This document shows, piece by piece, positions 2,939 to 24,925 of a DNA stretch of 26,671 bases. Made by a program: the position numbers and the translations under genes. The notes beneath the pieces were generated by a model. That model saw only the letters and a program-made list of their open reading frames with translations. It had not been told where the DNA came from and searched no databases. How positions within the stretch are numbered: the first letter of the stretch is position 1; each line of letters opens with the position of its first letter. Source of the DNA: Myxococcales bacterium (GTDB lineage Bacteria > Myxococcota_A > UBA9042); assembly GCA_037441385.1 (NCBI GenBank), contig JBBISH010000089.1, forward strand, positions 1-26,671. Direction: 5' to 3'.

Positions 2939-4513
2939 CTAATCGACCAGGCCACCCGAGTCGTCCTTGGCCTTGCCGGGACGGGATTTTGGCTTGCCTT
3001 GTGCTGGGTTGCGCGGTGCCTTGGGAGTTTCTGTGGCGACTGGCGCCGGATCCGCGGCCGGAACGGCGGCCGGGACTGGGGCCGGAGCGGGTGGCGGAGC
3101 CGGAGCGGGAACCGGAACCGGAGCGGGAACCGGAACCGGAGCCGGAGCCGGAACCGGAGCCGGAGCGGCGGCCGGAGCCGGAACCGGAGCTGCGGCCGGA
3201 ACCAGAACCGGAGCGGCCGCCGGAGCCGGAGCCGGAGCCGGAACCGGACTGGGAGCCGAACCGGAGGACGTGAGCGCGATGGCAACGGCGACCGCTGCGC
3301 CCACCACGACCACCGCCCCCACGGCCAGGATCGGCAGCTTGGACTTGGCCGGTTCTGCGGCGGGAACTGGCACTTGGACCGCTTGGCCCGCGGGCATGGT
3401 GGCCGGCCCAACCGGGGCCGCGCGCATGGTCGCATCGGCGCGCGCCGCCACATCGCTGGCCCGCAGCGCCGTGGTGGCCGCTTCAGTGTCCGTGGCCGGT
3501 GGTCGCGGGCGGGGTGCAGGCCTGGGCGCGGGCGCAGGCGGAACCACCGCGTCGCGGCGTTCGGTGACGGCGGTTTGGCGCGCGTCGTCGAGCACAGACT
3601 GCAGGGCGGCGGCCATCTCGTCGGCGGAAGCAAACCGCTCGCCGGCATCGGTCTGGATGGCGCGAAACACGATATCTGTCAATGGATTGGGGCATGGCCG
3701 CCGCAGCGAGCTGCGCGGGTGCGGTGGCGGTTCGGTCAAGCGCCGCAGCAGCATGTCGATGGGCGACTCGCCGGGGAACGGCGGCGTGCCGCACAGGCCC
3801 TCGAACAAGATGCTCCCCATGGCATAGAGGTCGGTGCGGGCGTCGACCCCTTTGCCGCGGGCCTGCTCGGGGCTCATGTACGCCGGCGTGCCGATGATCA
3901 CGCCCGCGCCGGTCAGTTCGGATGTCTGCTGGTCGCCCACGGTTTTGGCGATGCCGAAGTCGAGCACCTTGACGAAGTCATTCTCGCCGTGGACTTGCTG
4001 CAAGAAGATGTTGTCGGGCTTGAGATCGCGGTGCACCAGGCCGCGGCTATGGGCCTCGGACAGCGACTTTAGGACCTGTACGGCGATATGCACGAGGCGT
4101 TGCCAATCCAGCGGCCCTTCTTTTTCCAGGTGCGAGCTGAGCGGGCGACCGTCCAAGAACTCCATCGCCAAGTACATACCGCCGCTGGGCAATTCGCCAA
4201 AGTCGAACACGCGCACGGTGTTGGGGTGCTTGAGCGCGCTCGTCGCCTGGGCCTCGCGGATGAAGCGCGCCGCCATCTCTTGGTCGGACTGATTGCCGGC
4301 GTGGAGCACTTTGACGGCAACGATGTCGCGGGTGGCCGTGTGGCGTGCTTTGTACACGGCCCCAAAGCCGCCAGCGCCGATTTGGCCCAGGATTTCGTAG
4401 CGGCCGCCTACGGTGCTGCCCAGCAAGGGGTCGACCGCGTCGGTCTCTGTGCCGCACTGCGGGCAGCGCGACTCGGGCGTGGAAGTGTGGCACTGGGGGC
4501 AAGTGCGGGCCAT
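2939..4513 (-). CDS. Hanks-type Ser/Thr protein kinase with N-terminal double-CxxC zinc ribbon, one TM helix and a Pro/Ala-rich C-terminal tail
   Basis: Motifs [27 protein letters not shown] and [18 protein letters not shown] follows the ATG at 4513. TM segment [20 protein letters not shown]. Confidence 0.95.
3070..3266 (-). repeat. Hexamer-periodic (GGAGCC/GGAACC on + strand) low-complexity tract encoding (PA/PV)n of the kinase tail
   Basis: Tandem ccggag/ccggaa units are directly visible and translate to [13 protein letters not shown]. Confidence 0.9.
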
Positions 4514-4771
4514 GCGGGTCCTTGGGCTGCGGCACAGAGGCGCCGCTGAAATAGTGCGGCAGATTCGGCCGATTGGCAAAGGCGCCGTGACAGAGACGCA
4601 ACAGGAGGCAGGGGCAACACCGCGCCTGGACCGGCCCGCGGCGACGACCGGCAGTCCAGATGGTGGTCAGCGCTGCGGAAACCCTTTGTTTTCGGCCAGT
4701 AGAAAATGCCCCCCAACTTGCGCAGCGGTCTTGGCTTGCATCACCTGCAGGTTCCAGGGAGACTGCCATCC

Positions 4772-6586
4772 ATGAAGACTGCTCGCCTTGTACGTACCCC
4801 GTCTGATTCACGCCTGCGCGGTCTCTCTGACCCGGTCTGCAACCGGCGAGGATCAGGCGGGGCCCCCGGTTCGGGCCCGGAGAATTGCCGGAGTTTTCGG
4901 GCCGAATTGGACGGATTCCGCATTACCCTGCTTTTCCATTTCCTATGCGCCGTGTTGCTAGCCAGTTCCGGTGGTTGCGGCAGCTCGGACAGTGCCAAAA
5001 CCAGCACGGCCAGCGACGTGGTCGCCGATAGCAGCAAACCGGACGACGGGGCCAGCGCAGATGCGCCGGACGCGGCCACCACCACCGCCAGCGGCGCGCC
5101 GATCCTGCCGCCTGGGGCGCCGTTGCCGACCGAACGCGGCTGGCAGTGGGGGCGCACGGTGGTGCACATCCACAGCGCGTTTTCGCACGATGCCTGCGAC
5201 GGCGAGATCGACAAGACGGGCAAGGCCAACCCCGAGTGCCTGCAGCAGTTCCGCGATGCGTTGTGCGCCTCGACCCTGGACGTGGCCTTTGTCACGGATC
5301 ACCCGGCGCACATGGGCGAATTTCCTTTCGAGAAATTGCTCAATTATCGTGCAGATCTAGGTGACAAGCTGCTAGGACCTGCCGGAGCGCCGCGGGCCAA
5401 CCTGATCCAGTGCCCGGCGACCAAAGAAGTGCCCGCGCACCCGCTGCTGGTGACGGTGGGCTTCGAGGCGACGCACTTGATGCCCGTGGGCCTGCAACGC
5501 CATATATCGCCAACCGAACTAGAGGGCGGCGACCTGTCGGACGAAGTGAGCTTGACCACTGTGCTGGCCCGCGTGGCGGCGGCCAAAGAGGCCGGAGCAC
5601 TGATCGTCAACGCCCACAGCGAGAAGACCGAAATCTCGGCCAAGCGGCTCGTCGACGCCGGCATCGACGCGATGGAGATCTACAACATCCACGCCAACTT
5701 CTTGACGGTCATCGGCGGCGAGGGTGGCAAGCCGAAGCTGGGCAAAGTCTTTGAGCTGGAGCACTTCTTGGGGCCCAAAGAGTCGTCGCCGTGGCCCGAC
5801 CTGGTGCTGATGATCATGCTGGACATGCAGCCCGAGGCCGCGTTCACCAAGTGGCACGAAGTGCTGGCGGCCAAGCACGTGACGGCGCTGGTAGGCAACG
5901 ACGTGCACCGCAACGTGAAACTAGAGGCCTATTGCGGTCCGGGCGGCCAGTTCGAGGGCCTGTGCAAGCCGTTTGCCGACAAGTACCCGCATCTGGTCAA
6001 GCTGCTGACCGAGGGCGGGATTCCGCAGATGGCCGACGGCGACCGGCTGGACAGCTACAAGCGGATGCTGCGGCAAATCAGCGACCGCGTGTTGGTCAGC
6101 GCCGGGACCACGGACGAGGCGCGGGTCGGGGTCTTCCAAGACGCGCTGCGCGGGGGCCGCAACTGGGTCGTGTTCGACCTACTGGGCGAGCCCGACCACT
6201 TTGACCTAGTGGCGAAGTCGGGCGGCAAATGGGTCGAGATCGGCGGCACGGCCAAGGTTGGCGACGAACTGTGGATCCGCACGCCGCAGCGCGCCTTCCC
6301 GGCAACCTGGATGCCGTGGCAAGAGGCGGATACGCGCAACCCGGCCGATCCCGTAGAGATTCGGACCCTGCTCTGGCGCACCACGGCCGACGGCAAACCC
6401 GCCGAAGTGCTGCAGGAATACAAGGGTTTTGCCCAGTCCGCCACCTACAAGATGACCCAGCCCGGGCGCTACCACTTGGAAGTGCGGATGATTCCTCGCC
6501 ACTTGCGGCCGTGGCTGAAGGCGCTGGGCCAGTACGCCGACATCGAGCAGCGCTGGGTGGTCGGCAACCCGATCGCCGCGCAGTAG
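4772..6586 (+). CDS. PHP-like (CehA/McbA-type) metallohydrolase lipoprotein
   Basis: [21 protein letters not shown] and GNDVH metal-ligand motifs typical of the PHP fold. Lipobox-like [12 protein letters not shown] lies upstream of ATG 4772. The N-terminus is interrupted in frame by repeat copy A. Confidence 0.75.
4791..4923 (+). mobile_element. Palindromic MITE-like repeat, copy A (long form, 133 nt)
   Basis: About 77% identical by hand alignment (about 103/133 positions, one 1-nt gap) to the reverse complement of 12841-12973. Two hairpins (4797-4809/4850-4862 and ~4866-4878/4899-4910). Flanked by (T)TG and (T)TA. Confidence 0.75.
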
Positions 6587-6599
6587 CGACCGGCCAGGA

Positions 6600-6732
6600 A
6601 ACCGGAATCCGTTCGAGTCGGACGGTCAGAGACAGGAACCCTCCAGAGCTGTCTCGGGGTTCCAGCCTGATTCTCGCGTGTTGCGGGCCGGATCTTGGAA
6701 CTCGTGCCGGCACGGATCGCCAGCGGAGCGCG
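6600..6732 (-). mobile_element. Palindromic MITE-like repeat, copy B (degenerate long form, 133 nt)
   Basis: Gap-free alignment to the reverse complement of copy A at roughly 60% identity. Shared blocks include CGGAATCCGT, CGGGG..CC.GCCTGAT.CTCGC..GTTGC and CCGG.TC. Confidence 0.6.
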
Positions 6733-11237: not shown

Positions 11238-12812
11238 ATGACGGATATCATGATGAAGTTTGAGAATTTGCAGCTGGACGCCAAGCTGTTGCGCGCGCTG
11301 CAGACTCTGCACTACGCGACGCCCACGCCGATTCAGCAGCAGGCCATTCCGCCGCTTTTGCAGGGGCGCGACGTGCTGGGCTGCGCCCAGACCGGCACCG
11401 GCAAGACGGCCGCGTTCGCCCTGCCGTTGCTGCAGCACCTGCTTCGCCAAGAGCGGCCTGCCGCGGGTCAGCGGTTGCGGGTGCTGGTGCTCGCACCCAC
11501 GCGCGAGTTGGCGCTGCAGATCGACGAATCCTTTGGCCAATACGGCCAGTTCACGGGGCTGAAGTCGGCGGTAATCTTTGGCGGCGTGGGCCAGGGCCCG
11601 CAGGTCGACGCACTGCGGCGCGGGGTGGATATCTTGGTGGCGACACCGGGGCGGCTGCTGGACCTGCAAGGCCAGGGGCTACTGAACCTGAACGCCGTCC
11701 GCCACTTGGTGCTGGACGAAGCCGATCGCATGCTGGACATGGGCTTTGTGCGCGATGTGCGCAAGATCGTAGCGATGCTGCCCAAGCGCGGTCAAACGCT
11801 GCTGTTTTCGGCGACGATGGCACCCGAGATCCGCGAGCTGGCGAGCGAGTTGCTCAAGACGCCCGTTGAAGTGGCCGTCGCGCCGGCGGCGACCACGGTG
11901 GAGCTCATCGATCAGGCCGTGCTGCATGTGCACAAGGCACAAAAGCGCGCGGTGCTGGAGCGGCTGCTGGCCGATCCGGCCGTTACGCGCTGCGTGGTGT
12001 TCACGCGCACCAAGCACGGGGCCGACAAGGTCGCCCAGGCCCTGGACAAAGTGGGCATCAAGTCCGCCGCCATCCACGGCAACCGGTCGCAAAACCAGCG
12101 CGTGCGGGCTCTGGACGGCTTCAAAAGCGGCGACGTGCGCGTGCTGGTTGCGACCGATATCGCGGCGCGCGGCCTGGACATCGATGGGGTGAGCCACGTG
12201 ATCAACTTCGAGCTGCCGAACGAACCCGACAGCTACGTGCACCGCATCGGCCGCACCGCCCGCAACGGAGCCAGCGGGGTGGCCTGGGCGCTGTGCGATC
12301 CCGAGGAGCGGACGCTGCTGCGCGACATCGAGCGGCGCATCCAAAAGCCGGTGCCCGTCTTGCTGCCGTCGACCTTGGGCATCGAGCTGGCCGACCTGCC
12401 GCAACTGCCCGTTGAGATTCGCGAACCGCCACAGCGACGCCACCCGCAGGCACGCCGCGGCCACGAGCCCAAGCACGGTCACGACGGCCGGCACAGCCAC
12501 GAGCCCAAACACAGCCACGAGCCCAAACACAGCCACGAGCCCAGGAACAGCCACGACGGCAAACCTGGCTCGGCCAAGCCGGCTGCCGGACGCGAAGCGC
12601 CGCGCGACGAGCCTCGCGGCAGGTCCGGAAGGGATACGGGGCGCAGCGGGCCGCCTCGGCAAGACCATGGCCGGCCAGCGGCGCGGACGGACGCGCAGCG
12701 GCATTCGGGGCAACCGCGGAATTCTTCGGGCGTTCCGGCACCGTACGCGCCGCGGGCCACAGCTGCGCCGACCGGGAACCCGACCCAACGTGTCGAGCGC
12801 GACTGGTACTGA
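11238..12812 (+). CDS. rhlE: DEAD-box ATP-dependent RNA helicase, RhlE-like, with a long basic/His-rich disordered C-terminal tail
   Basis: Q motif (YATPTPIQ), AQTGTGKT, PTRELALQ, TPGRLLD, DEAD, SAT, ARGLD and HRIGRTAR. No DbpA-type C-terminal domain is apparent. GAAGGA RBS. The start may be 11238, 11250 or 11253. Confidence 0.9.
   Translation: MTDIMMKFENLQLDAKLLRALQTLHYATPTPIQQQAIPPLLQGRDVLGCAQTGTGKTAAFALPLLQHLLRQERPAAGQRLRVLVLAPTRELALQIDESFGQYGQFTGLKSAVIFGGVGQGPQVDALRRGVDILVATPGRLLDLQGQGLLNLNAVRHLVLDEADRMLDMGFVRDVRKIVAMLPKRGQTLLFSATMAPEIRELASELLKTPVEVAVAPAATTVELIDQAVLHVHKAQKRAVLERLLADPAVTRCVVFTRTKHGADKVAQALDKVGIKSAAIHGNRSQNQRVRALDGFKSGDVRVLVATDIAARGLDIDGVSHVINFELPNEPDSYVHRIGRTARNGASGVAWALCDPEERTLLRDIERRIQKPVPVLLPSTLGIELADLPQLPVEIREPPQRRHPQARRGHEPKHGHDGRHSHEPKHSHEPKHSHEPRNSHDGKPGSAKPAAGREAPRDEPRGRSGRDTGRSGPPRQDHGRPAARTDAQRHSGQPRNSSGVPAPYAPRATAAPTGNPTQRVERDWY
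12459..12566 (+). repeat. Six 18-bp tandem units encoding (G/S)H(EP/DG)(K/R)(H/N/P)
   Basis: AGCCACGAGCCCAAACAC units translate to GHEPKH GHDGRH SHEPKH SHEPKH SHEPRN SHDGKP. Confidence 0.9.
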
Positions 12813-13014
12813 TGCGAACCCCGGTTCGGCCCTACTATCCGTTCCGTCCGAATCGGACCGAAAAACGCGGGCAATTCTCACGGCCCAAATCGGGGTCCCC
12901 GCCTGATTCTCGCCAGTTGCACAAGGGGTCAGAAGAAGCGTATAGGCGTGAATCAGGTGGGGTGCGCATAAGGAATCGCCAGGGTTCTCGAGCCAGTTCA
13001 GACGGGTTCCGTGG
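12813..13014 (+). mobile_element. Palindromic MITE-like repeat, copy E (short form, 66 nt), split by nested copy C
   Basis: Joining 12813-12834 to 12971-13014 gives 66 nt that align without gaps to copy D (24860-24925). Flanked by GA (12811-12812) and GA (13015-13016). Confidence 0.6.
12835..12968 (-). mobile_element. Palindromic MITE-like repeat, copy C (long form, 134 nt)
   Basis: Its reverse complement matches copy A at about 77%. Stem CCCCGCCTGATTC (12897-12909) pairs with GAATCAGGTGGGG (12950-12962). Flanked by TA (12833-12834) and TA (12969-12970). Confidence 0.75.
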
Positions 13015-24859: not shown

Positions 24860-24925
24860 TACGCACCCCGGTTCGGGCCCAAAGAATTGCTCGAGTTTTC
24901 GATCCGATTCCGACGGAACTGGGAT
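24860..24925 (+). mobile_element. Palindromic MITE-like repeat, copy D (short form, 66 nt)
   Basis: TACGCACCCC joins directly to GGTTCGGGCCC..AGAATTGC..GAGTTTTCG..CCGA.T..GACGGA. This is the layout of copy A minus 4801-4867. Flanked by (T)TA and (T)TG. Confidence 0.7.

Follow-up and report, generated by a model that had tools for sequence, protein, structure and literature searches.

In the window analysed here, the complete 26.7-kb contig C89 of a draft, myxobacterium-like genome, a 132-nt repeat lies in frame within the signal peptide of a lipoprotein gene. [quoted passage not shown] Together with a duplicated target triplet it adds 45 codons to a frame that stays open, and orthologues in two related genomes lack the insert. 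The observation of an in-frame repeat in a lipoprotein leader, made earlier from the letters of the window, is thereby confirmed. We think it fairly probable that ribosomes still start at the ancestral ATG, read through the element and lose the extra residues with the signal peptide. The draft genome, G000, measures 6.6 Mb with 67% G+C in 221 contigs and is 91% complete.

The host gene comprises a single open reading frame (ORF) of 604 codons, translated from ATG 4772 to a stop at 6584-6586. Its product begins with MKTARL, followed by 45 inserted residues (VRTPSD...DGFRI), a hydrophobic core with lipobox, and a cysteine encoded by TGC 4976-4978. The original prediction had placed a 135-nt insertion at 4790-4924, limits that are equivalent to 4791-4922 plus the duplication, and both the net gain of 45 codons and the preserved frame hold. 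The features of the gene and its insert are listed below.

4757-4761, + strand: Shine-Dalgarno-like GGGAG, 10 nt 5' of ATG 4772, read in the sequence
4772-4774, + strand: ATG, ancestral and likely current start codon; the aligned ATG starts the orthologues, and the 604-aa public protein form begins here
4772-4789, + strand: six ancestral n-region codons, MKTARL, from the translation and the orthologue and homologue alignment
4788-4790, no strand: left target-site duplication, TTG (one mismatch to TTA), from the sequence and flank analysis
4791-4922, + strand: copy A, the 132-nt repeat, read in its stop-free +2 frame; nhmmer score 124.8
4797-4862, + strand: hairpin 1 of copy A, fold prediction
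4866-4910, + strand: hairpin 2 of copy A, fold prediction
4907-4909, + strand: in-frame TTG, alternative start, in the 3' arm of hairpin 2, with the nearest GGAG 13 nt upstream
4923-4925, no strand: right target-site duplication, TTA, from the sequence and flank analysis
4925-4975, + strand: hydrophobic core and lipobox region, aligning with the h-regions of 28 homologues
4976-4978, + strand: codon of Cys +1, the lipidation and cleavage site, conserved in homologues
4976-6586, + strand: mature lipoprotein of an uncharacterised family plus stop codon, from the ORF and its translation

The empty site is seen in both comparison genomes, G007, which is of the same genus (locus L002, 87% protein identity), and G005 (locus L001, 78%). 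Without the insert, the G007 orthologue reads MKNARHPLSSLLAAAALLVGSAG|C and begins MKNAR, and that of G005 reads MKRTPSRFLSSVLTAAVALSA|C and begins MKRTP. In G007, 23 residues precede the cysteine, as they do in the window's leader once the element is excised. The genome search places the G007 counterparts of query positions 188 and 484 at a distance of 161 nt, as against 296 in the query. The stretch GGTTCC.G..AGACTG ahead of the ATG is also conserved at both orthologous loci. Among 28 homologous proteins (P0002-P0029) taken from a public protein collection, none carries the insert, and 27 have called leaders of about 11-27 residues, of the short lipoprotein type; the remaining one, P0019, has probably been called from too far upstream. 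Orthologues lacking the element had been predicted to begin with an MKTARL-like n-region, as the two orthologues do, and the open frame and the insert-free orthologues together support an in-frame splitting of the lipoprotein signal peptide.

Purifying selection acts on the host gene along G000's own branch. With G005 as outgroup, 550 aligned codons and only single-nucleotide codon changes counted, this branch carries 4 nonsynonymous to 40 synonymous changes, and the branch of G007, which is free of the insert, 9 to 45 (Fisher p = 0.37). The insertion is probably not recent, judging by the high divergence of copy A, which is separated from its nearest genomic relative by 13 differences in 132 positions, where the family median is 4, and ranks 142nd of 188.

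To place copy A within its family, we ran an nhmmer profile made from genome copies on the 6.6-Mb assembly. The search returned 433 hits, 233 of them full length, and 194 of these measure exactly 132 nt; BLASTN of 4780-4935 against the genome gave 368 matches. We compared the two 3-nt flanks of 227 copies, with the adjoining triplets as control. The flanks were identical in 119 copies, compared with 4 of the 227 for the control triplets, and 109 of the 119 identical flanks have the form TNA (TGA 49, TCA 38, TTA 12, TAA 10). A 3-bp TNA target duplication added to 132 nt means that each insertion contributes 135 nt, or 45 codons. Across the 188 copies of 132 nt, four of the six frames are stop-free in 87-94% of copies, and the frame used by copy A is open in 91%, so that no adaptation was needed for it to be read through. 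A consensus with at least four open frames has P = 0.055 in 5000 dinucleotide shuffles; taken with the one-in-three chance that a length is divisible by 3, this is suggestive only.

The family is a non-autonomous, target-duplicating, MITE-like repeat: small, devoid of a transposase gene, dispersed in many copies, flanked by target duplications and found at filled as against empty sites. Its terminal inverted repeats are weak, with TAC...GTA tips and consensus ends that match at 13 of 40 positions. No left and right end pair 0.1-5 kb apart around a gene, as expected of an autonomous partner, was found in the 221-contig draft, and the sole end pair recovered in the partner search lies 286 nt apart. 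Because the genome is 91% complete, such a partner may have been lost from the assembly. A gathering-threshold Rfam search of the entire window yielded 0 matches.

Two hairpins dominate the predicted structure of the element. The fold of 4788-4925 has a predicted energy of -65.3 kcal/mol (z = -2.2, with 7 of 200 shuffles equally stable), and the wider 231-nt region 4760-4990 folds no better than its shuffles (z = -1.3). Within the family, the pairs of hairpin 1 are retained at most positions, in 83-98% of 180 distinct copies, and counting the pairs of the consensus fold likewise shows them retained. RNAalifold returned no structure for these 180 copies, and at least three doubly compensated copies occur in just 7 of 44 consensus pairs; with so few compensated pairs, there is no case for structural selection beyond shared descent. 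Half of the partial hits (100 of 200) contain the right end without the left, and some of them are reduced to the second hairpin (~55 nt). It is as if the right half spreads or survives alone.

Further intragenic copies that are in frame and free of stops occur elsewhere in the genome. A codon-usage score trained on 1569 long ORFs was used to class the surroundings of the repeat copies. Excising the full-length copies in silico left coding signal on both sides in one frame for 2 of 216, and a scan of native sequence, in which 386 of the 433 hits were evaluated, added a third gene-internal copy. For copies beside gene 5' ends, the frame stays open across the element in 31 of 73 copy-and-orientation pairs, and most of these open pairs yield signal-peptide-like N-termini once the element is excised. 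Six of the 5'-end copies were checked against orthologues, and 20 stop-containing cases were inspected by eye without orthologues. In four of the six, G007 shares the start context without the insert. The copies lying inside coding sequence, in addition to copy A, are as follows.

C145:6272-6403: gene-internal copy in a CheA-like kinase (Hpt, HATPase_c, CheW, receiver), within the ATPase domain
C17:40527-40658: gene-internal copy in a hybrid histidine kinase, between the N and G1 boxes
C10:47751-47875: gene-internal copy in the C-terminal linker of a Ser/Thr kinase
C25:13538-13669: n-region copy, native sequence MRARV[45]TLAVLCLAG..
C45:19265-19396: n-region copy, native sequence MMS[45]IPSSLVL..
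C5:105754-105885: n-region copy, native sequence MPL[45]THQNSH..
C7:66758-66889: n-region copy, native sequence MQV[45]RILAIQF..

The three gene-internal copies are all open and use one shared frame (P.PSESDR...PDSRQLQN...RRESGG). Homologues of the C145 and C17 proteins lack 44-45 residues exactly at these positions, the comparison for C17 being with a probable G007 orthologue, and both inserts appear to lie in loops of histidine-kinase ATPase domains. The four n-region copies are likewise open and lie 2-5 codons past a start that is shared with the G007 orthologue, before the signal-peptide core. Near the gene-proximal end of the C25 element there is no in-frame start, which makes read-through the simplest reading there. 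Two further candidates, C40:17174 and C18:60571, were not counted because their orthologue comparisons are ambiguous, with a G005 orthologue that has a different start, a cut G007 contig and, for C40, no match in G007. The verified intragenic copies thus number 8 of 386 evaluated hits (~2%), five in signal-peptide n-regions and three gene-internal, and three reading frames are used among the five n-region inserts. The whole set of eight is open, compared with ~61% expected from frame frequencies (0.615^8 = 0.02). We take this as suggestive only, most cases having been found among open frames in the first place.

How the leader of the host gene is now made can be reconstructed as follows. The 132-nt repeat entered by transposition at a TTA that spans codons 6 and 7, duplicating the triplet; as element and duplication make up 45 codons and the frame hit was stop-free, the reading frame was preserved. 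As the insertion left both ATG 4772 and the native ribosome-binding region unaltered, initiation there followed by read-through is most likely. Ribosomes would then begin at ATG 4772 and translate through the element, giving a prolipoprotein with a positively charged n-region of 51 residues instead of 6, ahead of an unchanged core and lipobox. This lengthened, net basic n-region would still be accepted by the Sec and Lsp machinery, and signal peptidase II would cleave off the entire leader, the 45 extra residues included. With the leader wholly removed, the mature protein would be unchanged and the insertion nearly neutral. We infer this start use, export and cleavage with fair, though far from full, confidence. 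The public collection gives the contig's gene as the 604-aa form from ATG 4772, which is weak evidence, being a gene caller's choice. Several points weigh against our account. The listed runs that hold the stretch include no RNA run. An n-region of 51 residues is unusual for a lipoprotein, and 27 of 27 well-called homologues have short leaders. The final ten residues ahead of the core carry two positive and two negative charges, and the orthologues have more canonical lipoboxes than its SGG|C. Lastly, a leader of conventional short length would result from the in-frame TTG at 4907.

A start at this TTG is the main rival to read-through. Translation would come mainly, or also, from TTG 4907, and most of the element would serve as 5' leader RNA. 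The codon is the only in-frame ATG, GTG or TTG from 4772 to the hydrophobic core, and the leader it would open has an Arg ahead of the core. At four other copies (C7, C14, C3 and C18) this TTG, which lies 16 nt from the element end, shares the frame of the gene downstream. Elsewhere in the family, copies clearly provide starts, an ATG being rebuilt where a TGA target meets the ...GTA end, and in five stop-containing cases a junction start codon, whether rebuilt or kept from the gene, is likely used. Yet TTG 4907 itself is poorly placed, with its nearest GGAG 13 nt away and its position in the 3' arm of a strong hairpin, and the MDGFR that it would begin has a net charge of about zero. ATG 4772, moreover, retains its conserved upstream region, and nothing halts ribosomes that set out from there; the C25 copy is open without any such internal start. 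We therefore consider a shifted start rather unlikely, while noting that both candidate starts give an identical mature protein after cleavage before the cysteine.

The remaining explanations concern the fate of the gene, the use of the insert and the assembly itself. Had the insertion inactivated its host through failed translation or export, the gene would be a young pseudogene that merely looks intact. The leader is indeed far longer than in the 27 well-called homologues, and two strong hairpins begin ~25 nt past the ATG. Against this stand an intact 604-codon frame, substitution counts on the G000 branch (4 nonsynonymous to 40 synonymous) no worse than on the insert-free sister branch, the place of copy A among the more diverged family members, and four other secreted-protein genes with the same type of insert that are also intact; inactivation is thus highly improbable. 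Hardly more probable is that the insert has been kept as useful, its hairpins or long basic n-region tuning initiation, targeting route or export kinetics. N-terminal signal-peptide extensions, such as the extended signal peptide region of autotransporters, alter targeting; insertions recur in the n-regions of five secreted-protein genes; and three of the four open frames encode net basic or neutral peptides, as calculated by hand. However, no orthologue or homologue has an insert at this position, the five genes have no relation to one another and use three different frames for their inserts, no sign of conservation extends beyond the family's own sequence, and tolerance in a discarded segment accounts equally well for the recurrence. 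The original prediction had proposed that the hairpins could tune translation or export, a proposal that finds no support, as the relatives are empty here and the other four leaders differ in frame and orientation. Misjoining of a repeat into the gene during assembly of a metagenome bin is conceivable in a family of hundreds of copies, the more so as no Logan contig crosses the element, the contigs breaking within it. But independent Logan contigs of run X1 (4500-4885 and 4856-5300) match both junctions without differences at depths of 9.45 and 9.09, equal to those of the flanks, and the flanks together make up one orthologous gene, its halves set exactly 135 nt apart and bordered by a target duplication. 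Such an artefact is extremely improbable. In runs X1-X4 no contig bridges the whole element and no empty-site joint is listed, contigs being unable to reveal rare alleles. Initiation at ATG 4772 with read-through and removal of the leader remains the reading that we prefer.

Beyond these intragenic cases, members of the family frequently touch gene borders. The duplicated triplet coincides with the in-frame stop (TGA or TAA) of an adjoining gene in 42 of 214 full-length copies, the element lying exactly at the gene end; examples include 22 copies whose left neighbour is a + strand gene and 21 whose right neighbour is a - strand gene. Overall, copies adjoin gene 3' ends about twice as often as 5' ends. 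Insertions into the TGA of an ATGA start context were seen at C15:73337-73468, C3:129021-129152, C78:20475-20606 and C30:33892-34022, and also at C180:1707-1839, C49:835-966 and C194:2128-2259. Because the element ends in ...GTA, a TGA target causes an ATG to be rebuilt at the far junction, and one element end has AGGTGGGG, resembling a ribosome-binding site, shortly 5' of this ATG. Where a stop within the element closes the upstream frame (C3:129021, C180, C15, C78 and C30), the start must be the junction codon, rebuilt or kept. Such a junction start differs from the situation of copy A, whose ancestral start is upstream. We do not claim an enrichment of junction ATGs, which are in frame in 14 of 73 pairs at gene 5' ends against a rough expectation of 8-9.

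The window contains three further members of the family.

6603-6718, - strand: degenerate repeat copy, nhmmer score 42.9, model positions 15-130
12839-12968, - strand: copy B, downstream of ORF 11238-12812
24865-24922, + strand: partial copy C, right half, with the second hairpin only, from a profile match

The degenerate copy lies 17 nt past the lipoprotein stop, and the gene therefore has one copy in its leader and another behind it. The lipoprotein itself (P0001, 4976-6583) has 36 homologues, all from metagenomes or metagenome-assembled genomes, the closer ones 534-593 aa long. Pfam and NCBIfam searches with it gave no family, and the homologues share a conserved stretch of 21 residues close to the N-terminus. 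The lipobox reads SSGG|C in the host gene, and the homologues are mostly of the L-x-[AG]-C type. Upstream, the region 4690-4771 (TTGCATCACC...GGTTCC.G..AGACTG, with GAGTAGAAAA farther 5') is more strongly conserved in G000, G007 and G005 than the signal-peptide codons, and is probably a promoter or 5' leader element. The same DNA also yields a spurious in-frame upstream ORF from ATG 4706. A promoter and terminator scan of 4400-5100 found none. Among the neighbouring features, the contig start (1-610) holds tandem Cys-rich units of ~150 nt of the CxDGNxCTxDxC type, and a Ser/Thr kinase gene at 2939-4579 (- strand) has a long PAPAPV repeat tail with a 12-nt period at 3018-3281.

Copies of the family persist almost exclusively in intergenic DNA or in protein segments that are permissive. 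In the lipoprotein gene, a mobile repeat appears to have been absorbed into a coding sequence at no cost because it landed in a part of the protein that is discarded. We speculate further, and with considerable doubt, that the family is built to be harmless in genes, colonising gene edges and finding in signal-peptide n-regions its main intragenic refuge, where long basic leaders might alter export. This idea draws on the 45-codon unit, the four of six stop-free frames, and the TNA target and ...GTA ends that rebuild stops and ATGs; five of the eight verified intragenic copies, too, lie in a segment that makes up far below 1% of coding sequence. With these copies, the genome provides a small natural collection for studying where in proteins an addition of 45 residues is tolerated. 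There is a bearing on annotation as well: leaders of this kind will be mis-called or overlooked by gene callers and signal-peptide predictors, and a start codon that an element junction has rebuilt may pass for a native one.

Among known systems, IS5-family elements of the IS1031 group are a source of MITEs with 3-bp targets. For PIF/Harbinger elements, a 3-bp target duplication is described in the portion of PMC2213677 drawn on here. Like MITEs of these two groups, the family studied here has a 3-bp TNA duplication, small size, high copy number and filled as against empty sites; unlike them, it has weak terminal inverted repeats and no full-length partner in the draft.

The original prediction had likened the insert to Rickettsia palindromic elements (RPEs; Ogata et al. 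2000, as covered by the review PMC10969869), as a protein-coding repeat in a different phylum. Like RPEs, the family is a hairpin-forming repeat of ~130-150 bp with in-frame, stop-free copies in unrelated protein genes, and it adds its peptide at seemingly tolerant places, here an n-region, loops of kinase ATPase domains and a linker. The likeness ends with location and insertion. According to the relevant part of PMC10969869, ORFs harbour nearly half of the RPEs in three families, whereas the present family is ~2% intragenic. It also has a clear 3-bp TNA duplication, the comparison with RPEs being by description and not by sequence, and its host is free-living, with a 6.6-Mb genome of 67% G+C. 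The in-frame intragenic copies thus uphold the analogy, but the family as a whole is an overwhelmingly intergenic, target-duplicating MITE.

Nor does the different phylum make a new principle, since publications already describe MITEs fused in frame to genes outside Rickettsia (PMC10969869 and PMC3184786, in the passages available to us). The former calls in-frame fusions of intragenic MITEs with host ORFs "not unusual", RPEs standing out by their frequency; according to the latter, RPE, BOX/RUP, ERIC and the Bordetella BRE occur in genes or extend their 5' or 3' ends; and in-frame insertions of QMITE are described for Coxiella (PMC5896051, likewise in excerpt). A literature search, judged on titles and abstracts and hence a weak negative, gave no paper on Myxococcota MITEs or on MITEs in signal peptides. 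The same excerpts of PMC3184786, PMC10969869 and PMC5896051 mention no signal-peptide insertions for ERIC, BOX/RUP, BRE, QMITE or the Anabaena MITEs, and the present family is of other sequence and from another phylum. As far as these excerpts describe them, it shares with the intragenic members of all five the character of a small, non-autonomous repeat whose open frames are unrelated to transposases. In-frame MITE fusion is a principle already known in several phyla, of which copy A, though not new in principle, is a clean and recurrent case.

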